NCBI GenBank assembly: GCA_029259155.1
Contig: JAPDJI010000006.1
Coordinates: 5,657 to 69,656, forward strand
Origin: Candidatus Methanomethylicia archaeon
GTDB taxonomy: Archaea; Thermoproteota; Methanomethylicia; Nezhaarchaeales; B40-G2
Length of the DNA: 64,000 nucleotides
Direction: 5' to 3'
A program made the position numbers and the translations under genes. Of the stretch, positions 4,107 through 57,768 are shown in pieces (position 1 is the stretch's first letter; every line of letters begins with the position of its first letter). A model generated the notes under the pieces. The model was not told the origin of the DNA. It searched no databases and saw nothing but the letters and a program-made list of their open reading frames with translations.

Positions 4107-5471
4107 TCAGTAGCGCTTAAGTATTAGCCTAGTCCGAGTTCCCGCTACACCTTTAATCGCTCTTATTCTATCTAGCCTCTCGTTAAGCTCGACGATGGAG
4201 CTGGCTGAAAGCCTAACCTCAATGTCGAACTCTCCGCTTAGCTCGAAGACCTCTTCTACTCCCTCTATGCTCAGGATGCGCTTAGCTACTGAAGCGGTGT
4301 GTATATTGCTGGTGCACTGCACCATTACTGAGGCTTCTATTCTTTTAGGTACCTCAACGCTCGGTTTGATCCCTAATACTTCCTCGACGAAGGAAGCAAG
4401 GTCCATGTCGCCGTGTAGGCGTAGAGCTGGCCTGCTCCTCAAGGCCTTTAACACAACGTTCACCTGCTCATTATCCAGCTTTAATCCAAGCTTTTCCAAC
4501 TTGTTTCTAAGAGCCTTGACTGAACAGTACTTCGAAACCTCTATCTCTACCTTCCTGCCAGCTTCTTCAGGCTTTATAGGCCAAAGAACATTTAATCCTT
4601 CAAGCGCCAAGTCCATGCGCGGCCCTGTCTTAACCGTGAAGCTATAGTCTCCTACTACTGGGCTATGGGTGGGTAGAGGTATACCGCTATATTTTTCCAC
4701 GAGCATGGATAGGCGTGGAAGGCCATTTAACCTAACGGTCTCTATTTTAGCTAAGGTCTTTAAGGCTACTGCTACCTCAGCCATTGACGTTATGCCTGGG
4801 CCTTCACCTATGCCGTTAACTGCTACGTGTACTCCTTCAGCTCCTCCGCTTAAGGCGGCTATTGCATTAGCTACCGCCAACCCCATACCGTCATAGCACT
4901 TTGCCTCCAGCTTTGCTCCTACTTTTTTCTTGACCTCTTCGAAGAGGGATCTAACCTCGTTAGGACCCAATAAGCTAGAGGTATCTACTAGGCAGAGTGT
5001 ATCAGCTCCTTCACTAACCGCTTGTTCACAGAGAACCAGTAGATCTTGAAGAGCTGTTTGGGAAGCCCATTCAATAAGCAGGGTGACCTTAACGCCTCTC
5101 TCAAGCGCAGCCTTGATTCCCTCCTTCAGCTCCTTTTCCCAGCTAAGCCCTAGTCTATTTGAAGCCTCTTTCCATGCGGAGGTCGCCAGCATTACTCTAT
5201 CGATGTTGCACTCGATGGCTGCTTCAACTTCTTCAGCAGATAACCAAGCTCTAGCCGCTACTTCAGCTTGTAGGCCTTCACCTGCCACCTCTCTAACAGC
5301 CTCGAAGTCTTCATCACTAATAGCTGGCCTACCTACTTCGATGACGTCTACCCCTATCCTATCTAGCTCTCTTGCAACCTCTACTTTCTGATCTACAGTG
5401 AAGGAAACCCCGGCAGCCAGTTCACCTTCACACAGTGTTGAGTCGACGATCTTTATCTTCAAGCAAGACAC
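4107..5471 (-). CDS. HMGL-like (DRE-TIM) 2-oxoacid condensing enzyme, homocitrate/2-isopropylmalate synthase family, with C-terminal RAM (Lrp/AsnC-type) regulatory domain
   Basis: N-terminal IKIVDSTLCEGE...GVDVIEVG TIM-barrel motifs of the LeuA/NifV/HCS family; C-terminal EGVEEVFELSGEFDIEVRLSASSIVELNERLDRIRAIKGV typical of a RAM domain. Confidence 0.7.
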   Translation of the reverse strand: MSCLKIKIVDSTLCEGELAAGVSFTVDQKVEVARELDRIGVDVIEVGRPAISDEDFEAVREVAGEGLQAEVAARAWLSAEEVEAAIECNIDRVMLATSAWKEASNRLGLSWEKELKEGIKAALERGVKVTLLIEWASQTALQDLLVLCEQAVSEGADTLCLVDTSSLLGPNEVRSLFEEVKKKVGAKLEAKCYDGMGLAVANAIAALSGGAEGVHVAVNGIGEGPGITSMAEVAVALKTLAKIETVRLNGLPRLSMLVEKYSGIPLPTHSPVVGDYSFTVKTGPRMDLALEGLNVLWPIKPEEAGRKVEIEVSKYCSVKALRNKLEKLGLKLDNEQVNVVLKALRSRPALRLHGDMDLASFVEEVLGIKPSVEVPKRIEASVMVQCTSNIHTASVAKRILSIEGVEEVFELSGEFDIEVRLSASSIVELNERLDRIRAIKGVAGTRTRLILKRY

Positions 5472-5565
5472 CTACGCCTGCCTAACCCTATCGGGCTCCA
5501 TTTAAGCCTTATGAGTACGCCTAGACGGGGGGTACCTCAACCCTTAACTCAAGTTAAGAGGGGAG

Positions 5566-5754
5566 TCACTTCTCTATAGCTATTGCGAAGTCTGGGCATA
5601 GGAGTTCGCAGAGCTTACAGGCCAAGCATTTATCATCTATCGGCTTAGGAGGCTCTCCCTCAACCTCTGCTGGGCGAAGTGCTTTACTTGGACAGAACTC
5701 GACGCATATGCCACACCCCTTACATAGCTTCTCATCTATGTAAATCCTGGCCAT
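5566..5754 (-). CDS. porD: 2-oxoacid:ferredoxin oxidoreductase delta subunit (2x[4Fe-4S] ferredoxin)
   Basis: 62 aa with CKGCGICVEFCP and CLACKLCELLCP; last gene of a 4-gene OFOR operon; 1-nt start/stop overlap with the gamma subunit. Confidence 0.8.
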   Translation of the reverse strand: MARIYIDEKLCKGCGICVEFCPSKALRPAEVEGEPPKPIDDKCLACKLCELLCPDFAIAIEK

Positions 5755-6320
5755 TAAACCACCACTAAACTGAAGCCTAACCTTAAGGCTTCAAGTGCAA
5801 CTGACCCTCTCACCTTAGCTCTAACTTCAGGCAGCTCTTCAATCAAAGCTTTTTCGAGGCTACGTAAACTCGGAATGCCCATCAGCTTCGATAAAGCTCC
5901 AACTAAAATTAGATTGCCAAGTAATGGCTTCTTCAACTTCTCTTCAGCTAATCTGAAGGCCGGGATAGTAACAGCTTTATAATTCTCGGTCGATACTTCC
6001 TTCACCTTCTCATCAATCACCAGCAGCCCTCCCAGCTTCAGTTTTCGGAGAGCTTTTCTAGCCACTCTCTCACTCATAATTATCAGGGCATCGAGCCTAG
6101 AAGTAAAAGGATAGGCTATAGGCCCGTCTGAAAGCACTAACTCGCTTAGGCTCAACGTACCCCTAACCTCCGCTCCATAACTGACAGATTGAGAAGCGTT
6201 GAATCCATCAAGCACTGCCGCCTTCCCTATGATAGATCCCGCCACTAAAACTCCCTGTCCACCTATCCCTGCTACTCCTACCTCAAGCCTCAAGCCCAGC
6301 CTTCCTCCCAGCTCTTTCAA
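5754..6320 (-). CDS. porG: 2-oxoacid:ferredoxin oxidoreductase gamma subunit
   Basis: GIGGQGVLVAGSIIGKAA motif typical of POR/VOR gamma; operon context. Confidence 0.8.
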   Translation of the reverse strand: MKELGGRLGLRLEVGVAGIGGQGVLVAGSIIGKAAVLDGFNASQSVSYGAEVRGTLSLSELVLSDGPIAYPFTSRLDALIIMSERVARKALRKLKLGGLLVIDEKVKEVSTENYKAVTIPAFRLAEEKLKKPLLGNLILVGALSKLMGIPSLRSLEKALIEELPEVRAKVRGSVALEALRLGFSLVVV

Positions 6321-7110
6321 TCATTAACTTGTAGGTTTCAACAAAGCCCGGCTTCTCTCTGTCGGCGTAAACCCCGACTAGGATTCTTCCTTCCACATCT
6401 ATGCCGCTGGCCTTACTAACGTCTAGGCTTCTCCGGAGCATCCACTTCATCATCTCAGCTGGCTTAGCCATTTTATTGCGCCTACCGAACTGTGTAGGAC
6501 AATGCGACAAGGCTTCGACGTAAGCAAACCCCTTCCTCTCTAAGGCCCTTCTAATAGCATTTTTCAGCATTACAGCGTGGGCCACGGTCCACCTAGCTAC
6601 GTAGCTTGCCCCTGCATCAGCAACTAGCCTTGCCACATCCATTCCGGGCTCAGGGTTTCCATAGGGAGTAGTGCTGGTGTAGGAGCCTTGCGGCGTGGTT
6701 GGAGCGGTCTGACCCCCAGTCATGCCATAGATCATGTTGTTAACCATTATCACCTTTATCTCTAGGTTTCTTCTAGCTGCATGTATTAGGTGGCTTAGCC
6801 CTATTCCTGCTAAGTCGCCGTCTCCCCCGAAAACTACTACTTCCTTATCCGGCCTAACCATCTTGATCCCTGTAGCCACAGGTATGCTCCTACCATGAAG
6901 TGTATGTATGGTATCGGCCTTAAAATGAGGAGAAGGTATCCAGGAGGAGCAGCCTATTCCGCTACAAAACACGAAGTTGCCCAGGTCTTCGTAGCCTAAC
7001 TCCTCGACTGCCTTAAAGAAACAGTTTGCCACGATACCGCAGCCACATCCTGGACAGAAAGGAGTAGGTAAGACTTCTTCGCGTAGGTATTTAAGAGCGA
7101 AGTGCCTCAT
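6283..7110 (-). CDS. porB: 2-oxoacid:ferredoxin oxidoreductase beta subunit (TPP-binding)
   Basis: CPGCGCG N-terminal motif and GDG...NN TPP-binding region; 4-nt overlap with the alpha subunit. Confidence 0.85.
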   Translation of the reverse strand: MRHFALKYLREEVLPTPFCPGCGCGIVANCFFKAVEELGYEDLGNFVFCSGIGCSSWIPSPHFKADTIHTLHGRSIPVATGIKMVRPDKEVVVFGGDGDLAGIGLSHLIHAARRNLEIKVIMVNNMIYGMTGGQTAPTTPQGSYTSTTPYGNPEPGMDVARLVADAGASYVARWTVAHAVMLKNAIRRALERKGFAYVEALSHCPTQFGRRNKMAKPAEMMKWMLRRSLDVSKASGIDVEGRILVGVYADREKPGFVETYKLMIERAGRKAGLEA

Positions 7111-8258
7111 CTACGCCACCTCAAGAGTTGGTTGACCACTTCCCTAGGGGTGATCGGCCTTCCGCCACCTACCTTATTCAACCCTACTACGCGGCAAGCC
7201 TCCCGCGCCACTCTTCTTACCTCTAAAGATATTTGTCCAAGATTAAGCTCGGGTACGACTATCACATCTACCCTCTCTGAAAGAGCTTTTACAGGTTTAT
7301 CGGGGAAGGGCCAGATGGTCTTCAATCTAACGTGGCCTACCTTTACCCCCTTATCTTCAGCCATCTTTATCGCTTCATATACGCTCCTAGAGGTGCAGCC
7401 GTAAGACACTACTCCTACCTCAGCTTCCTCTATGCCTTGCAGCTCTACCTTAACTATGTCGTCGACGTGATCCATTATCTTCCTAACTAGCCTAGTCACC
7501 AACTTACTATGTACCATGGGCGATGCGGTGTGCCTGTAGCCATATTCATCATGGGTCGATCCGGTGACGAGGAGGTTGAAGCCATCGCCGAGCCTAGGCA
7601 TGGGTGGCACACCGTTAGGTTTAATGGATCCGAAGGGGGCTTCGTCAAGGCTATATGGTCTTCGCCTCTCCACGAGTACTATTTTGTCCTCAGAGGGGAC
7701 CTCCACCCTCTCCCTCAAGTGCCCTACTATTTCATCAGCTAAAACTATGACTGGGCATCGATAACGCTCAGAAAGGTTAAACGCCTCCACGGTTAAGTCG
7801 AACATTTCTTGAGCTGAGTTAGGACATAGAGCAATAATGGCTTGATCTCCGTGTCTACCCCATCTAGCTTGCATGACATCTCCTTGTCCACATTTAGTGG
7901 CTTGGCCCGTAGCTGGTCCCAGACGTTGAACATCCACTATTACGCCTGGGGTCTCCGTCATTACCATGTACCCTATTGCCTCCTGCATGAGGCTAAATCC
8001 AGGGCCGCTAGTCGCTGTCATTGCCTTAGCCCCCGCCCATGAAGCTCCGATTACTGCGTTGATGGCTGCAATCTCGTCTTCGACCTGTAGAAATACTCCC
8101 TTTAAGAGGGGGAGCCTTGACGCCATCCTCTCCATGATCTCCCTCTGAGGCGTAATAGGGTATCCGGCAAAGAAGCTACATTCCGCCGCTAGGGCACCCT
8201 CAGCGCAGGCTACATTCCCCTCCCAAAAATGAACTCCAGCTAGTACTCTCTTCTCCAT
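7107..8258 (-). CDS. porA: 2-oxoacid:ferredoxin oxidoreductase alpha subunit
   Basis: N-terminal GNVACAEGALAAECSFFAGYPITP and overall POR/KOR alpha architecture; first gene of the operon. Substrate specificity not determinable. Confidence 0.85.
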   Translation of the reverse strand: MEKRVLAGVHFWEGNVACAEGALAAECSFFAGYPITPQREIMERMASRLPLLKGVFLQVEDEIAAINAVIGASWAGAKAMTATSGPGFSLMQEAIGYMVMTETPGVIVDVQRLGPATGQATKCGQGDVMQARWGRHGDQAIIALCPNSAQEMFDLTVEAFNLSERYRCPVIVLADEIVGHLRERVEVPSEDKIVLVERRRPYSLDEAPFGSIKPNGVPPMPRLGDGFNLLVTGSTHDEYGYRHTASPMVHSKLVTRLVRKIMDHVDDIVKVELQGIEEAEVGVVSYGCTSRSVYEAIKMAEDKGVKVGHVRLKTIWPFPDKPVKALSERVDVIVVPELNLGQISLEVRRVAREACRVVGLNKVGGGRPITPREVVNQLLRWRR

Positions 8259-9023
8259 GATTAGCCTAGTAGAAGGCTGCCTTCATGCATTTAAGCTTTA
8301 TCAGCTCTCCACACAGCTTCTCAACGCTTTGCCACCTAGTGCCTTCTTGGTGGTAAATTAGTCGACGGAATCAAAGTAAGAACATATATGTTCCTCTTGG
8401 ACAGCTATTTTATTAAAAAAACACTTCTTAACACCTAAACCATAAGTCCTACATAAGGCTAGGGATGGACATGAAGCTGTGTATTGGAGGGGTTTATACG
8501 AAGAACGAAGACGCCATAACTGTTCTCGTTAACCATTACGGCATGTTGCTGAAAGCCGGAAGCAAGCGCTACACCTTCTACGTTGAGCATAGAGGAGTAA
8601 ATTAACCGTAAAAGAGGTAGCTGAGTTAAAGGAGTTAAGGAGAAAGTACCTACATGATAGTACCCTGAGTAGTGGATTAAGCAGAAGACTTTGGACCTTT
8701 TCAGCAATGATTGGGATAAAGAGGCTGAGTTGAGGGAAGAGGCGGAGGGTTGATGTCGAGGACGCTTGGCTTTAAGTGCTTGCCGCTTGGGGGTTAGTGT
8801 TGTTGGCTAAGCTAATGGCTCCTTAGTGGCTGCATGGAATGAGTTTAGTTGGGCGTGGATAACAACTGTCCGCGCCGTGGGGTTTGCGTTAAGGGTTAGT
8901 AGGGTGTTTCCTTAAGTCATCGTCGCCTAGTAGAGCCTTTATCGTTGACTGTCCTCGACGAGGCTGTCTGTGTTTACGGCTTTTGCTTCAATTAAGCATG
9001 CTTTCTCCATGAGCTAGGCGCCC

Positions 9024-9374
9024 TCAGTGACTAGGGTTAAACCTGTCGTGCTTAGCTACGTATAGGTAGGCAGCGTCGTGGAACGTTAGTTTGAGCTTGG
9101 AGGCTAGCTTCATGATCCCTGTGTAGTCCTGGAGGCTCCTCTTTTCAACCTCCTTTTCAAAGGCCCTTCTATCAACCTCGCTGACCCTCGCTCCATGGCT
9201 CTCGATCAACTCCTTAAGCTTCCTTGAAATTCTAATGCTGATCGTCACACTATTTAACGTAGCATGCCTGACATATTTACGGTTGAAATAGCTATGCATG
9301 TTGTGGAGGGCACGGTTCAGGTTAGGAGTTAGCTTTGTTGTCGTGCGGTGTTGGTTAGCAGGAGAAGCGCCCAT
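9024..9374 (-). pseudogene. Degenerate toxin-antitoxin remnant: VapB-like ribbon-helix-helix antitoxin segment fused to a PIN-domain C-terminal-like tail
   Basis: SVTISIRISRKLKELIESHGARVSEVDRRAFEKEVEK resembles archaeal VapB-type antitoxins; the tail LTFHDAAYLYVAKH resembles the last conserved PIN motif; no intact PIN partner nearby. Confidence 0.3.
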
Positions 9375-9867
9375 TGTCTTTGGCTTCGCGGACCCTTTGC
9401 ACTACGTTCTCAAGCCACCCTATCGTCTTCACGTTCCTGATGTCGAACGCTGGGACGTAGGGCTTGATGTCCAATAGAGGGGTTCCGTCGACTATGTCCA
9501 CGTCCTGTATGTGGAGCGTGTTGCCCTCTCTTCGCAGTAACCTGACTATCGATATCCCTATGGGGTTAGGTCTTGGAGGAGCCCGTGTAGCGAAGATTCC
9601 CTGTGGCTGGTTGTTCATGTAGGGTTTAACCTTCAACAGGCTCTCCTTTACGAGGTGGAAGTGGTATATGAGGATGATGTGGGAGAAGCCCTCTAAGCCA
9701 TCTAGCCCCTCCGCGTACTCTGGGTATACCTCGACGGTCCCTTTGACGCCTTCAGCGGCTGCGGGCTATATTGGGGTGCCCTTGGGCTCTTTAAAGGGCG
9801 TATGTATAAACCCTATGGGCTTATAGGTTATGTGAGTACTCGAGGAAAGGAATGGCGTGTTTAACAC
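9355..9867 (-). pseudogene. trmO: trmO/tsaA (YaeB, UPF0066) homolog interrupted by an in-frame TAG at the conserved Gln of the G-x-P-R/I-Q-P motif
   Basis: Translation from GTG (9867) gives MLNTPFLSSSTHITYKPIGFIHTPFKEPKGTPI-[TAG 9766..9768]-PAAAEGVKGTVEVYPEYAEGLDGLEGFSHIILIYHFH...RAPPRPNPIGISIVRLL...DGTPLLDIKPY. All YaeB hallmarks are present and in a single frame. Confidence 0.6.
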
Positions 9868-10149
9868 CCTTAGTTGGGTTAGCTGGGCTTAAGTTAAGAG
9901 TTAGCCTCATTAACAGGCTTGTCGCCTCCGGCTTTCAAGGTGTTGTTGAGGCTCCTAGGTGCTCTCCTAGCTGAGGGCTTAATTGAGCTTGATGCGGCCT
10001 GAGGGGGTGTTTAAGCGAGCTGGCCGCGGTTAAGGGATGCGTCCAACCTCACCGACGCTAGAGGCTTAAGTCGGCTCACTGTTGATAGGGCTTTTCTTGG
10101 AGGGAGGAGGTGTCGGCTACTACGCGCCCGAAGAGGCTTCGCTGGAGCT

Positions 10150-10330
10150 TTAAGTCATGGTTTTAGCTGCGTTCTCAACGTCTAGCTGTAAGGCCTCAGC
10201 TCTCTCAAGGTATCCTCTCGCGAGCTTAGCCCTATATTCGGCCTCCTTTGAAGGATTCAGCTTCAAGCCTTACCCCTGGATGGGCTCAAGCTCTTCGCTT
10301 AGAGACTTAGCTAGGCTCATAGCTGGCGCT
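10150..10330 (-). pseudogene. PaREP1-like gene fragment with an internal stop
   Basis: Minus-strand translation MSLAKSLSEELEPIQG*GLKLNPSKEAEYRAKLARGYLERAEALQ resembles the N-terminal region of PaREP1 family proteins and is interrupted by TAA. Confidence 0.25.
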
Positions 10331-10472
10331 ACGCTGGTAAGAAGACCGTATCCCATGCAACTACCTTAAAAGGCGCTACACCGCGGTGCTGAAGCGATGA
10401 TCGTGCCCAGCTTTTTTGCGAGGACATAACACTTTAAGTTGGTGGGTTAACGTAGGGTTCTTGGGGTAGGCC

Positions 10473-11660
10473 GTGGCTTACGTCTCGTCCGCTCGCCTCG
10501 ACGCTGCACGAAGAATCATGGAGGAGTTCGCCTGCTCGACAGGCCTACTTCCTGAAGGCTATCCACGGCGCTACCTATGGACAGATGCCTTCGCGGTGTT
10601 CAACTTCTTGGAGCTCCATAGGCTTACAGGCGAGGCGCTCTATAAGCAGCTCGCGTTGCGCCTTGTAGAACAGGTTCACCACGTCTTGGGAAAGCATCGC
10701 GGAGACGATGGGCGTAGCGGCTGGATAAGCGGGCTTGAAGACCGTGAGGCTGAGGAACACCCGACGGCCCGCGGCTTAAGGATAGGCAAGAAGCTACCTG
10801 AGCGCGGACCAGACGAGCCTTACGACCCTATCTTGGAGTGGGAGCGCGACGGTCAATACTACCACTACCTCACTAAGTGGATGCTCGCCCTATGCAGGGT
10901 AGCTCAGGCGACAGGCGACGCTAAGTACCTTAGATGCTCCGTGGAGCTAGCCGAGGTAGCACACGCCGCCTTCACTTACACCTCGTCTCTCGATGGCCGC
11001 AAGCACCTATACTGGAAGATGAGTATAGACCTCTCCCGCCCCCTAGTACCTCAGGAAGGTCAGCACGACGCGCTCGACGGCCTCATAACCTACGCTGAGC
11101 TTCAAGCAGCCTCGCCGGCGGGGTCGCTGCACCTAAGGAACCAGGTAACGGATGCTCTAAGCATGTGTAGGGAAAGAGATTGGAGTGAGTGGGTTACTGA
11201 TGACCTGCTCGGCGTAGGTGAGCTCTTAAGCCTCTCCTTCAGGGCGGCGAGGCTAATTCTCGAGGGCATGGACTACTTAGCTGAGCTGCTATACCCTCTG
11301 CTCGAGGCTGCGCACGTTAGCCTTAGAGCTTACCTGTCTAAGGACTTCTTCAACCTTCCAGCCAGCCGTAGGCTCGCCTTCCGCGAGCTCGGCCTCTCGA
11401 TAGGCCTTCACGCCGCTGAGAGGCTTAAAGCCCTGGCCGGGAAGTTACGCGCCCTCCACCATCCATTACTTAAGGACGTAGGAAGGTTTACTTCGATGAA
11501 CGAGGAGATTGAAAGGTTCTGGCTTAACCCAGCAAGCTGGGAGGCTGATACTTGGGTGGAGCACCGGGACATTAACATGGTCATGCTGGCGACGAGCCTA
11601 ATACCCGATGGATACCTCGGTCGACTACCCAGCTCTGTGCAGCGTGAAGATCTACGTTGA
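10473..11660 (+). CDS. Conserved hypothetical protein (395 aa), possibly an all-alpha (alpha/alpha toroid-like) enzyme
   Basis: Long ORF with good codon-usage coherence; no motif I can assign with confidence. Confidence 0.45.
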   Translation: MAYVSSARLDAARRIMEEFACSTGLLPEGYPRRYLWTDAFAVFNFLELHRLTGEALYKQLALRLVEQVHHVLGKHRGDDGRSGWISGLEDREAEEHPTARGLRIGKKLPERGPDEPYDPILEWERDGQYYHYLTKWMLALCRVAQATGDAKYLRCSVELAEVAHAAFTYTSSLDGRKHLYWKMSIDLSRPLVPQEGQHDALDGLITYAELQAASPAGSLHLRNQVTDALSMCRERDWSEWVTDDLLGVGELLSLSFRAARLILEGMDYLAELLYPLLEAAHVSLRAYLSKDFFNLPASRRLAFRELGLSIGLHAAERLKALAGKLRALHHPLLKDVGRFTSMNEEIERFWLNPASWEADTWVEHRDINMVMLATSLIPDGYLGRLPSSVQREDLR

Positions 11661-12422: not shown

Positions 12423-12692
12423 ATGGCAAAGAAATATGCGCTTATCGTTGCTTTGGGCAAGGACCGTCCAGGCCTCATAGCTGGCTTAGCCTCAGCCGTG
12501 GCTGAGGTGGGAGGTAACATAGAGGATCTGGATGAAGTGGTGATGAAGGGGGTTTTCGTCATGAACCTGCTCATCAGCCTCGAGGGAGATCAGAGAAGCT
12601 TCGAAGAGCTACGCAGCCATATTTTAGAGAAAGGCAAAGAACTGGGGTTAAGGGTGGAGGTTCACGATCCTAAAGAGGAGGGTTGGGTTTAG
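12423..12692 (+). CDS. Standalone ACT-domain protein (89 aa)
   Basis: ALIVALGKDRPGLIAGLASAVAEVGGNIEDL is a canonical ACT N-terminus; it immediately precedes serB, which carries a second ACT domain. Confidence 0.6.
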   Translation: MAKKYALIVALGKDRPGLIAGLASAVAEVGGNIEDLDEVVMKGVFVMNLLISLEGDQRSFEELRSHILEKGKELGLRVEVHDPKEEGWV

Positions 12693-13633
12693 GCTTGAGA
12701 GTTGTGGTTACTGTAGCTGGCTTCGATAGACCTGGTATAGTAGCTGGTATAACCGAAGCTTTGGCATCGCTGAACGCCAACATCGTTAAGGCGAGAGCCT
12801 CCTCCCTTCTAAACCTCTTTGTAATGGTACTTCTGGTCGACCTGGCAGAGGTGAAGGTCCCCTTTAAGGTAGTGGAGGACGTACTCAAGGAAAGAGGCAA
12901 TGAAATAGGTGTAGGCGTATCTATAGAGACGGAAGACGGCTTCCTCAAAGAACGGCGACTCGTGGCATTTGATGCTGACGGTACATTAATAGATGGCGAG
13001 GTCATCGACGAGCTAGCTAAGGAAGCAGGAGTGGAAAAAGAGGTCAAGGAGATCACGAGGAAGGCTATGGAAGGTGAGATAAGCTTCAAGGAAGCCCTTA
13101 AAATGAGGACAGCCTTGCTTAAAGGCCTCCCGATAGACCGGGTCAAGAAGGTAGCTAATAGGATTAAGGTGGTTCCTGGAGCGCAGGAAATGATCTCAAC
13201 GTTAAGGAGCGCAGGCTTCATTACCGTGTTGATAACGGGAGGCTTTGATATAATCGCTGAGGAGGTAGGACGTAAATTAGGGTTTGACTACGTCTTCGCT
13301 AACCGCCTCGTTGTCAAGGACGGTGTACTGACAGGAGAGGTGGAGGGGGGCATCATGGATCCTGAAGATAAATTAAGGGTATTAAAGGAAGTAGCTGAAA
13401 AACATGGAATTAAGCTAGAGGAGTGCGTAGCTATAGGGGATGGGGCCAACGACCTGTTGATAATAAAGAATGTAGGTCTAGGGATAGGCTTCAACCCTAA
13501 ACGTGTGGTTAAGGAACAGGCTAAGGCTCTTGTCGGCATAAAGGACATGAGGGCGGTCTTAGCCCTAATGGGCTTCGGTCAGCTAAAACGAGACATCGAA
13601 GCCAAGGTAAAACAATCCAACGCTAATAGTTAA
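12683..13633 (+). CDS. serB: Phosphoserine phosphatase SerB with N-terminal ACT domain (HAD superfamily)
   Basis: VTVAGFDRPGIVAGITEALA (ACT) followed by the HAD motifs FDADGTL, ...ITGGF, GDGANDL. The real start is probably the TTG/GTG at about 12695-12704. Confidence 0.8.
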   Translation: MGLGLRVVVTVAGFDRPGIVAGITEALASLNANIVKARASSLLNLFVMVLLVDLAEVKVPFKVVEDVLKERGNEIGVGVSIETEDGFLKERRLVAFDADGTLIDGEVIDELAKEAGVEKEVKEITRKAMEGEISFKEALKMRTALLKGLPIDRVKKVANRIKVVPGAQEMISTLRSAGFITVLITGGFDIIAEEVGRKLGFDYVFANRLVVKDGVLTGEVEGGIMDPEDKLRVLKEVAEKHGIKLEECVAIGDGANDLLIIKNVGLGIGFNPKRVVKEQAKALVGIKDMRAVLALMGFGQLKRDIEAKVKQSNANS

Positions 13634-54065: not shown

Positions 54066-55373
54066 CTACTCCACTCCTGAGAACTCTTTCCTCAACCTCT
54101 CGAGGTCGCCGCGCTCGAAGAGTATCCTAACCTTTGGGGAGGCGAAGATCTTGATGGCCTCCTCGACTCTTCTCTTAACCAGCTCGAAGCCTGCTGGAAG
54201 AGGTGGTATAGGTCTCGGGGGCGGCGGCACGTACTCTTCTGTGGGAAGCTCTACTTTCCTCGCGTATAGCTCGCCCCTTGGCGCTCTGTAGCCTTCAAGC
54301 ACTTTCTTAAAGAACTCTTCATAGCTAGCTGACCAAGGGGCTCTACCTTTCTCAATCCTCATGTGCTTTCTCCTAACCTCTAAGGCCTCGACAGGACAGG
54401 CCTCCTCGCAGGCTCCACAGTATATGCAAGCTTCCTTGACAGCCGATACCTTGTCTGGTCCCACTGCCTTAGAGACGTATATTGCCTTAGTCGGACAAAT
54501 GTTGATGCAGTTTTTACATCCTGAAGGATCGCACTTATCAGGGTTAACCATGACCACCTCTCCGTCAAAGGGGGGCTCACAGCTTACAGCCTCGGTGGGA
54601 CATACCTTAGCGCATAGCCCACAGTAGACGCAGAGCTCTTCGTCGACCTCCACCGAGCCGCTTACGCGAGGCTTCTCTACGACCCTCGGCGCAGCCTTTG
54701 TACACTCGACCTTTATAGCGTCCGTCGGACATATCTCCTCGCATAGGCCACAGTAGTCGCAGAGCTCCTCGTTGACGATGATTGTTAGCCCCGGCTTAAA
54801 GCTGGGCGCTTCAGGCCGAGTCCACTCAATCCGTAGCGCATCGCAGAGATCTTCGCATAGGCCGCAGTAACAACACTTCTCTAGGTCTACAGCTATCTTG
54901 CCCTCGGCGTACCTATCAGCTGTCTCGTACTTGACAAGGTCTTCCTTCTTAGCCACCTCGACCTTAGCCTTGATGGCTACACGAGGGCACACGCGCTCGC
55001 ATAGGTGGCATGGGATGCACTTGTCCTCATCGATCGATATGGAGCCCTCGACCCTTGGGTACTCCTCCTCGTGCTCGATGTTGACCTTGAGGGCGTGGGT
55101 AGGGCAGATTGACGAACATAGGGGGCATATCACGCACTTGCCCTCGTCTATCATTATGAGGGGGGCCTCCAACTTACCTGAAGCGACCTCCTTAATGGGC
55201 CCCAAGCTAATGGCGTTAGTGGGGCACACCTTGACGCATAGACCGCAGCCCACACAACGATCGATTATGAAGGTTAGCTCCTTACCTAATACAACGCCCT
55301 GCCACCTGTAGAGCAGGAGATTTTCCTCTATCGCTGAGAGCTCGGTGATGGGCTTCTCAGACAAAGCTTCCAC
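54066..55373 (-). CDS. Polyferredoxin with eight [4Fe-4S] motifs (FwdF/MvhB-like)
   Basis: Eight CxxCxxCxxxC(P) motifs counted; 17-nt overlap with the hdrA stop. Confidence 0.75.
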   Translation of the reverse strand: MEALSEKPITELSAIEENLLLYRWQGVVLGKELTFIIDRCVGCGLCVKVCPTNAISLGPIKEVASGKLEAPLIMIDEGKCVICPLCSSICPTHALKVNIEHEEEYPRVEGSISIDEDKCIPCHLCERVCPRVAIKAKVEVAKKEDLVKYETADRYAEGKIAVDLEKCCYCGLCEDLCDALRIEWTRPEAPSFKPGLTIIVNEELCDYCGLCEEICPTDAIKVECTKAAPRVVEKPRVSGSVEVDEELCVYCGLCAKVCPTEAVSCEPPFDGEVVMVNPDKCDPSGCKNCINICPTKAIYVSKAVGPDKVSAVKEACIYCGACEEACPVEALEVRRKHMRIEKGRAPWSASYEEFFKKVLEGYRAPRGELYARKVELPTEEYVPPPPRPIPPLPAGFELVKRRVEEAIKIFASPKVRILFERGDLERLRKEFSGVE

Positions 55374-57768
55374 CTCCAGTGGCCTCGGAGCCTATTGGCC
55401 CGAGGTTAGCCACCTCATCCACGAACCATCTTATCAGCTCCGCCAGCCTCTTTCCCTCAGTCGCTGAAGCCCCGTCGATGTGGAGCCTCCTAGGGTTTAT
55501 GCCTACCTCCTTCAACACTTCCCTGAGGGCTGAGGCCCTTTCATTAGCCTTCGCCCTGCCGGAGCGGTAGTGACAGTCTTGTTCGTGGCAGCCAACTATG
55601 AGCACGCCGTCAGCCCCCAACTCAAAGGCCTCTAGCACGTGTACCGGCGTGACCCTAGCTGAACAAGGCACCCTGATGACCCTCACGTTAGTCGGGTAGG
55701 GAATCTTGCTAGTCCCAGCGTTGTCTGCGGCTGCGTAGCCGCACCACTGGCACATGAAGGCCACTATGAGCGGGAACTCCTTCTTCTCGGACAGCAGGGC
55801 CTTAAGCATGAGCGATATCTGCTCGTTGCTCAGGATCCCGCCGGGAGGAGATAGAGCTCCTGTCGGACACACTGCATAGCATGCTCCACAGCCTCGGCAG
55901 GCTAGCTCATCTACCTCCACCTTCCCCTTCTCCACCTTCAGGGCTCCGAAGAGGCATGCATTTACGCAAGCGAAGCATCGCTTACATGTACTTGGATCAA
56001 TGGTAGGAGCGTAGACCTCAACCTCAACCTCACCTCTCTTGATGAGCTCTGCTGCCCTAGCCGCCGCAAGCCCAGCTTGCATGACAGACTCGGTTATATC
56101 CTTAGGCCCTGTGCACGCTCCCGCCACGAAGATTCCTTTGCTGAAGGTGTCGGCTGGGTTAAGCTTTAAGTGATACTCAGCTAGGAAGTCGTAATCGCTT
56201 AGCTGTAGGCCGAGGAGCTTGGCCAGCTCCCTATTGTCTGGGGGCGCCTCCACGCCTACGCTGAGTACGACGAGGTCGAACTCCTCCTCGACCATCTCTG
56301 AGGAGAGTGTGTCCTCGTAGAAGATCTTGATCCTCCCTTGCTTCGTGGCCCTAAGCTGCCCTACCTTCGCCCTTAGGAAGCGTACGCCCAGCTCCAGGGC
56401 CCTCCTGTAGGCTTCCTCACACGCCTTGCCAATGGCTCTCACGTCGGTGTAGAAGATGGCAACGTCGACGTCGGGGAGCATGAGCTTGGTCTGTATGCTC
56501 TGCTTGATGGCGTTCATGCAACATACTCGGCTACAGTAAGGCCTCCCAATCCTGTCAGACCTGCTCCCCACACACTGTATGAAGGCTACTTTCTTAGGTT
56601 GCGCCCCGTCCGATAACCTAATTATTTTTCCCTTGGTTGGACCCGAGCTATTAAGCATCCTTTCGTACTCGGGCCCCGTCACGACGTCGAGGCACCTGCC
56701 ATAAAGGTATTCTGGAAGCCCCCGCGGGTCAAAGGGCTTGAAGCCGGTGGCTACGATGATGGCCCCTACCTTGAACTCGATGTAAGAGTCTTGGTCCTTG
56801 AAGTTTATAGCTTTAGGATCGCATACCCCGAGGCACGACATGCAGCCAATACACCTACTCATATCTATGTAAGGCGCTGGAGGGACGGTTTCTGGCGAGG
56901 GCTTAACGATGGCCCTCCTCATACCTATACCGTAGTCGTACTCGCTGGGGGCCTCGATGGGGCATACATCGAGGCACTTATTGCACCCGTTGCAGAGCTT
57001 TTCATCGATGTACCGAGCCTTCTTCAACACCTTCACGGTGTAGTTGCCGGGCGCACCCTTGACCTCTACGACCTCGCTCAGCGTGTACACGTCTATTAGG
57101 GGGTGGTTGTACACCTTCGAGAGTTGGGGGCCTAGCACGCAAATGCTGCAGTCAAGGGTTGGATAGACCTTGTCCCACTTGGCCATGTGCCCCCCTATGA
57201 AGCCCTCCTTCTCCACGAGGTATACCTTGATCCCCATGTCGGCAAGGCTTAGAGCGGCTGTGATCCCTGCTACGCCTCCACCTATGACTAGGACCGCTTT
57301 CTCCACGGGCAGCTTTGCTACCTTAGCCTCCCTGGCGTAAGGCGCTGCGGCTATGGCCATGCTGACCAGGTCAGCGGCCTTGACGGTAGCTCTATCTGGG
57401 TCGTGTGCGTGGACCCATGAGCACTGTTCCCTCAGGTTAACTATCTCCACGAAGCCTCTATTGAGGCCAGCCTCCTCAGCGGCGTTCTTGAAGAGCTCGC
57501 TGTGTAGTGTAGGGGTGCAGCATCCTATGATTAAGCGGCTAGCCTTCTCCTCCTTTAAGGCCTCTTTTATTTTTCTTAGGCCATCATCGCTGCAGCAGTG
57601 CTCATGTTCATAGAAGGCTACGTCTGAGTACTTCTCAGATAGAGTTTTAATGACCTTACCTACATTTACTACCCCTGCGATGTTTGAGCCGCAGTGACAG
57701 ATGAAGGTCAGGACCTTGCTGGGAGCTCCCCCCGCACCGTCCAGCCTAGCCGTCTAGACCACCTTCAT
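55357..57768 (-). CDS. hdrA: Heterodisulfide reductase subunit A fused to a C-terminal MvhD domain; the conserved N-terminal Fe-S domain lies upstream of the first canonical start and is preceded by ATG-AAG-GTG-GTC-TAG
   Basis: FAD motif VLVIGGGVAG, inserted ferredoxin motifs, C-terminal FMCQWCGYAAAD...IRVPCSARV (MvhD). The in-frame upstream sequence LTFICHCGSNIAG...IIGCCTPTLH...NLREQCSWVH is the HdrA N-terminal domain. The ORF track starts at GTG 57450; ATG at 57766..57768 is followed by an in-frame TAG at 57754..57756. Confidence 0.7.

Follow-up and report, generated by a model that had tools for sequence, protein, structure and literature searches.

The 64-kb window (the whole stretch of DNA that was analysed) carries on its minus strand, at 9355..9867, a gene of the YaeB/TrmO family (UPF0066, AF_0241-type) that comprises 170 codons plus TAA and is interrupted once. 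The frame begins with the GTG at 9865..9867, runs for 33 sense codons to a TAG at 9768..9766, continues for 136 sense codons and ends with the TAA at 9357..9355; from GTG 9867 to TAA 9355 the frame is otherwise free of stops and frameshifts. The same GTG codon begins the intact alleles P0001, P0246 and P0249, and the sequence upstream of it is conserved in the intact alleles that were compared (contigs L001 and L080). When glutamine is substituted at the TAG codon, the 170-aa product matches Pfam TrmO_N (PF01980) over profile positions 1-116 of 116 with an E value of 2.2e-41 and 141.2 bits (cutoff 26.8), and the NCBIfam equivalog TIGR00104 with 141 bits (cutoff 93.25) over residues 12-145, a match that spans the TAG. 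The nearest solved structures, with E values of 5e-28 to 1e-19, are TrmO of P. aeruginosa (7btu), AF_0241 of A. fulgidus (2nv4), HI0510 of H. influenzae (1xqb) and RPA0152 (3okx). By profile score, the predicted product belongs to the TrmO_N/UPF0066 family; "TrmO" serves here as a homology label for a function predicted from sequence. A sequence-only reading of the window had described a complete YaeB/TrmO-like frame from GTG 9867, with which PF01980, TIGR00104 and the structure matches all agree. The name trmO/tsaA that it gave to the gene holds as a statement of homology but not of type, the product being of the short AF_0241 type without the C-terminal domain and not of the proven TrmO type.

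The TAG (9766..9768, minus strand) is codon 34 of the gene and is private to the source contig. In the alignment to 2nv4 it coincides with Gln22 of AF_0241, which corresponds to Gln25 of E. coli TrmO, confirming that the stop falls on the conserved glutamine to which it had been assigned; glutamine occupies this position in 120/120 of the best database homologs (119 with P-[IVL]-Q and one with PPQ). The residues that contact AdoMet are Gln22, Arg82, Asp111 and Lys122 in AF_0241, and Gln25, Arg92, Asp125 and Lys136 in E. coli TrmO (PMC4132733). Three of these four are present in the frame as R95, D124 and K135 according to the 2nv4 alignment, and the fourth, the glutamine, is the TAG, leaving the four-residue set of the family incomplete in the window allele; seven sister haplotypes keep all four. 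The Q25A substitution strongly reduces the activity of E. coli TrmO (PMC4132733), and therefore the affected residue is one that matters.

As had been noted, a mechanical list of open reading frames fragments the gene, reporting only a 33-aa N-terminal and a 93-aa C-terminal piece. The latter (9355..9636, minus strand), which is also what is annotated on the source contig, begins with TTG and lacks residues 1-77, hence both the glutamine motif and the EGLxxLExFSH block. Its TTG at 9636 is the first ATG, GTG or TTG after the TAG, 43 codons downstream, and therefore a useful C-terminal product is not to be expected; ribosomes that start at GTG 9867 would stop after 33 residues. The 93-aa product is on record once, from the source contig only, in a 90% identity cluster that also contains five different intact sequences of 170 aa. 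In the contig index, exact look-ups of the 33-aa and 93-aa products and of a neighbouring 116-aa product returned no match.

Codon 34 is CAG, and the 170-aa ORF is uninterrupted, in 7/7 near-identical haplotypes: L001, L079 (ERZ25515786), L080 (a 116-kb contig of ERZ27227321), L086 (ERZ27227318), L087 (SRR6478753), and L084 and L085, which are JGI metagenome contigs. The last two were the only contigs retrieved when JGI metagenomes were scanned with a degenerate 41-mer that accepts either T or C at the variable base, and both have CAG. The protein of L001 (P0001) is an intact 170-aa protein, 95% identical to the window's and with the same GTG start. Beyond these haplotypes, an 83%-identical ortholog (L002) has CAA at the codon, and glutamine is likewise encoded in a Thermofilaceae MAG (L020). 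It had been suggested that the N-terminal part might prove to be absent from relatives, which would have spoken against an interrupted gene; instead, the relatives encode it in the same frame and from the same GTG. Within the gene, only two or three bases are private to the window allele; those listed are at 9810 (GTT to TTT on the minus strand, V20F), 9768 (Q34stop) and 9568 (synonymous). Since all other sampled haplotypes have CAG and private bases are so few, the stop is a derived, private C-to-T change, in accord with the single CAG to TAG transition that had been proposed, and the small number of differences from the nearest haplotypes indicates that the disruption is recent. The V20F substitution is not necessarily damaging, because P. 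aeruginosa TrmO (7btu) has tyrosine at this position.

The intact haplotypes differ among themselves by 13 synonymous and 10 non-synonymous changes, four of the latter within the unconserved first 17 codons. A rough count gives dN/dS of about 0.2-0.3, and therefore purifying selection normally acts on the gene. After the stop, the window allele has too few private changes (two or three in the whole gene) for relaxed selection to be gauged.

The L002 ortholog (9983-10133 of that contig, MAG SRP141552_co1_137) has a peculiarity of its own, in that the stretch from the preceding stop to the conserved N-terminus contains no ATG, GTG or TTG. The ORF list of L002 begins late, and a stop at the same codon as in the window was considered and ruled out, as translation gives CAA there and what is missing is a canonical start; the gene may have lost its start codon or may use a non-canonical one. 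The flanks of the L002 gene are unlike those in the window, except for a decayed antitoxin/PIN remnant. The closest homologs, at 65-75% identity, include many from bacteria (Dehalococcoidia, Deltaproteobacteria, Syntrophales and Pelosinus) as well as from Asgard archaea, Bathyarchaeia and Archaeoglobi. This mixed list suggests frequent horizontal transfer of YaeB, whose bacterial and archaeal branches are intermingled (PMC4132733). No second trmO copy was found within the window by tblastn.

The gene is located in a gene-poor interval (8258-10473) between the pyruvate:ferredoxin oxidoreductase operon and a gene for a 395-aa protein. From about 8300 to 10480 the sequence is hypervariable and mosaic, with at least three haplotype patches alternating within 2 kb. 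The window is a patchwork that resembles L079, L001 and L086 from 10480 to 10073, L080 and L084 from 10016 to 9778, and L086, L087 and L085 from 9772 on. The last of these switches, defined by variable sites across eight haplotypes, falls at 9772..9778, which is 4-10 nt from the TAG. Upstream of trmO, the window and L080 are distinguished by 38-nt indels, and several other assemblies have contigs that terminate inside the hypervariable stretch. SNPs private to the window are common across 8300-10480 and patchily distributed, as in the cluster at 8306-8375, a pattern that looks like real population diversity, not scattered errors. A further apparent cluster near trmO, including positions 10155 and 10111, was dropped because both of these are shared with L079. 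The conserved pyruvate:ferredoxin oxidoreductase operon (5287-8258) contains no change private to the window, and therefore the contig is not generally error-rich.

The small minus-strand ORFs on either side of trmO (9024-9374 and 10150-10266) resemble decayed toxin-antitoxin genes, for which 9372-9888 and 10581-11238 of L002 may be compared. In one of them, a deletion seen by comparison with L002 has joined an antitoxin-like N-terminus to a PIN C-terminal fragment, and the other consists of a PaREP1-like piece of 38 aa. All toxin-antitoxin Pfam matches of these flanking ORFs are below threshold, the exception being a MazE/AbrB antitoxin in L002, and the toxin-antitoxin labels are hints. The 395-aa protein is encoded on the plus strand (10473-11660), has no Pfam match, starts with a GTG directly after an in-frame TAG and is found exactly on L079 as well.

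Two of the ENA metagenome contigs carry at one end (the 3′ end of L074 and the 5′ end of L080) a sequence that we take to be sequencing adapter, translated as ...CLLYTSPSPRDRG. Residues derived from it are present in called proteins, namely P0121 and the truncated 183-aa product of L080.

No terminator is used more often than TAG within the window, where it ends 22/65 long ORFs, or 26/73 with a looser gene list. The median distance to the next in-frame stop is 17 codons after TAG, compared with 7 and 8 codons after TAA and TGA, and therefore back-up stops are not in excess behind TAG. Coding density and gene lengths in the window are normal under the standard code. There are no tRNA genes in the 64-kb window or in 19 related loci, and the window has no Rfam match. 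For the 116 nt that surround and follow the TAG, the predicted RNA structure is unexceptional at -32 kcal/mol (shuffle mean -32.9, z 0.23), and the sequence downstream of the TAG is identical in CAG alleles; therefore, nothing there evolved together with the stop. The whole window was searched for further TAG-interrupted conserved genes by examining stop-bridged ORF pairs and long start-less leaders, by six-frame reading of gene-poor gaps and by Pfam searches of the pairs, and only trmO and the leader of an hdrA-like gene were found. Other stop-bridged pairs were rejected as antisense shadows (for example, 12673-13578 opposite serB) or ordinary gene ends.

The hdrA-like gene (55357..57768, minus strand) begins ATG AAG GTG GTC TAG, with the TAG at 57756..57754, and then has 101 codons without ATG, GTG or TTG, which encode a conserved cysteine-rich N-terminal domain (57450-57768). 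Gene callers and the public annotation begin the gene at GTG 57450 (697 aa, P0122), cutting off the cysteine-rich domain. The arrangement is identical in seven assemblies (the window and six others), one strain differing at 6 of 2412 nt, with 5 of the changes synonymous; because it recurs across assemblies, the arrangement is real. The relative L074, which is 87% identical, has ATA in place of the window's upstream ATG, and its gene starts at an ATG exactly four codons past the same in-frame TAG, which is therefore an ordinary stop in the 5′ leader of that gene. By this comparison, the window's lineage has lost its hdrA start codon (GAC replaces ATG), and the TAG is predicted to lie outside the coding sequence. 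A plausible N-terminus would be restored by an out-of-frame GTG at 57737 followed by a run of six G (57733-57728), through either a -1 shift or the gain of a G by transcriptional slippage. Relative to L074, dN/dS is 0.05 in the start-less part and 0.07 downstream, ratios that are blind to a recent loss of the start because dS is about 1. The hdrA TAG lends no specific support to amber readthrough. One assembly, ERZ27227318, combines the same hdrA TAG with an intact CAG trmO, and the metagenome may contain more than one strain. Thus, the second in-frame amber in a conserved gene that had been reported from the sequence exists as a TAG at 57756..57754 but is not inside conserved coding sequence, and the idea that the two ambers form a pattern is not sustained, the hdrA TAG being an ordinary upstream stop in L074.

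The best explanation of the trmO allele, and one that may be adopted with modest confidence, is a recent nonsense change in a dispensable gene. A C-to-T transition would have turned the codon of the AdoMet-binding glutamine from CAG into an amber stop in the strain or haplotype represented by the contig, leaving a frame that is disrupted by comparison with intact close orthologs and has no plausible restart. The allele would then be a null, either as a pseudogene of very recent origin or as a loss-of-function variant that still segregates in the population. On this explanation, the T would be real in the organism, the allele would not be translated through, and loss of the gene would be tolerated. 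Dispensability is plausible because E. coli delta-trmO strains have been made and studied (PMC4132733), because archaea often have several yaeB paralogs (PMC4132733), and because the L002 ortholog lacks a canonical start. Against a null allele, the TAG is present in a single assembly only, and it lies beside a haplotype switch, where a chimeric consensus is most prone to error. This position invites a different explanation, in which the metagenome contig switches haplotypes within trmO, the T at 9768 is an error, or a rare variant among the reads, that became fixed at the junction, and the gene of the organism is intact with CAG. Such a consensus artefact is a tangible possibility that falls short of being probable. 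It is consistent with the patchwork haplotype and with the distance of the last switch from the TAG, a proximity (10 nt or less, the gene being about 510 nt long) that by a rough estimate would arise by chance in about 4% of cases; with the lack of the T in any other assembly, including JGI and ENA assemblies whose flanking genes are near-identical; and with the breaking of several assemblies in this stretch, which is typical of assemblers confused by strain heterogeneity. However, errors in single reads are rarely retained by assemblers, genuine recombination among strains yields the same mosaic, the other private SNPs cluster as genuine haplotype patches do, and the neighbouring pyruvate:ferredoxin oxidoreductase operon is free of private changes.

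Of the three possibilities originally proposed for the TAG, a young pseudogene and a sequencing or assembly error are thus the ones favoured, and the third, readthrough, is not. In its functional form, a near-cognate tRNA-Gln or a suppressor tRNA-Gln(CUA) would restore the glutamine and give full-length enzyme, possibly at a reduced level. In its favour, the frame is otherwise intact and the stop falls exactly on a glutamine codon, where insertion of glutamine would regenerate the wild-type protein; another in-frame TAG lies between ATG and the start-less hdrA domain, fixed in seven assemblies; and in-frame stops in prokaryotic genes have been argued to be often tolerated and leaky (Belinky et al. 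2021, PMC7918605). Nevertheless, readthrough is improbable, because no contig but this one has the stop, TAG often serves as a terminator here and no signal is present downstream. A stop at a recoding-type site is expected to be conserved, but this one is replaced by a glutamine codon in the seven close haplotypes, in L002 and L020, and in every one of the best homologs. Moreover, TAG is not followed by nearer stops than the other terminators are, the sequence at the TAG folds no better than shuffles and is shared with CAG alleles, neither the window nor the 19 related loci contain a tRNA gene, the window has no Rfam match, the two ambers do not travel together in ERZ27227318, and in L074 the hdrA TAG lies ahead of the ATG start. 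Stop-codon readthrough in archaea had been shown for selenocysteine and pyrrolysine alone, according to a 2021 review (PMC8211752). A broader version, in which natural glutamine-inserting amber suppression in the population would yield both the trmO product and an hdrA product at full length (from ATG 57768 through TAG 57756), is more doubtful still; if true, it would be the first documented readthrough of a stop codon by a standard amino acid in an archaeon. As for insertion of pyrrolysine or genome-wide reassignment of TAG, all that speaks for it is that two in-frame TAGs happen to occur within 64 kb, and its probability is close to nil: it is effectively refuted by stop-codon usage, TAG being a leading terminator amid genes of normal length and density under the standard code. 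The site is that of an invariant glutamine and is a pyrrolysine site in no homolog, and the systematic search for stop-bridged genes disclosed no further conserved gene interrupted by TAG.

The finding bears mainly on annotation: the 93-aa CDS represents part of a disrupted yaeB/trmO-type gene and merits a flag as a pseudogene or low-quality site, and the population overall retains the intact gene under purifying selection. More generally, contigs assembled from metagenomes may carry private variants at haplotype junctions that mimic recoding. If the TAG is real and is translated through, it bears on archaeal readthrough beyond selenocysteine and pyrrolysine.

Among known proteins, AF_0241 (PDB 2NV4) is an archaeal single-domain UPF0066 class VIII beta-barrel AdoMet methyltransferase with the same architecture of about 150-170 aa as the product described here. 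It aligns over residues 15-145 with an E value of 5e-27, its Arg82, Asp111 and Lys122 corresponding to R95, D124 and K135, whereas its fourth AdoMet contact, Gln22, corresponds to the stop codon in the window allele. TrmO of E. coli, a tRNA m6t6A37 methyltransferase, and TrmO of P. aeruginosa (7BTU) share a homologous N-terminal TrmO_N domain. Unlike these bacterial enzymes, the window product has neither the C-terminal domain nor its DPRxxY motif and ends about 25 residues past the beta-barrel (...REAKDNGRFSC); the alignments to 7btu (237 aa) and 1xqb (247 aa) end at chain residues 144 and 143, respectively. The C-terminal DPRxxY domain occurs in no archaeal YaeB, m6t6A is undetected in archaeal tRNA, and the substrate of archaeal YaeB is not known (PMC4132733).

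As a precedent for a UAG within a conserved enzyme gene, the pyrrolysine-containing methylamine methyltransferases of methanogens may be compared. In those genes, the UAG is conserved among orthologs, occupies an active-site position and is accompanied by pylTSBCD in the genome; here, in contrast, the UAG is private, replaces glutamine and is a frequent terminator. Segregating nonsense alleles and young pseudogenes of prokaryotic populations (PMC7918605) offer another comparison, since they likewise consist of a single nonsense change in an otherwise intact, constrained gene whose close relatives are intact. The difference from the cases of that study is that the stop in trmO is not conserved across lineages, conservation being the ground on which that study argued that stops are tolerated or leaky. 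Belinky et al. 2021 (PMC7918605) discussed the frequency of such stops among prokaryotes, and nonsense substitutions private to a single genome within a population are already well known.
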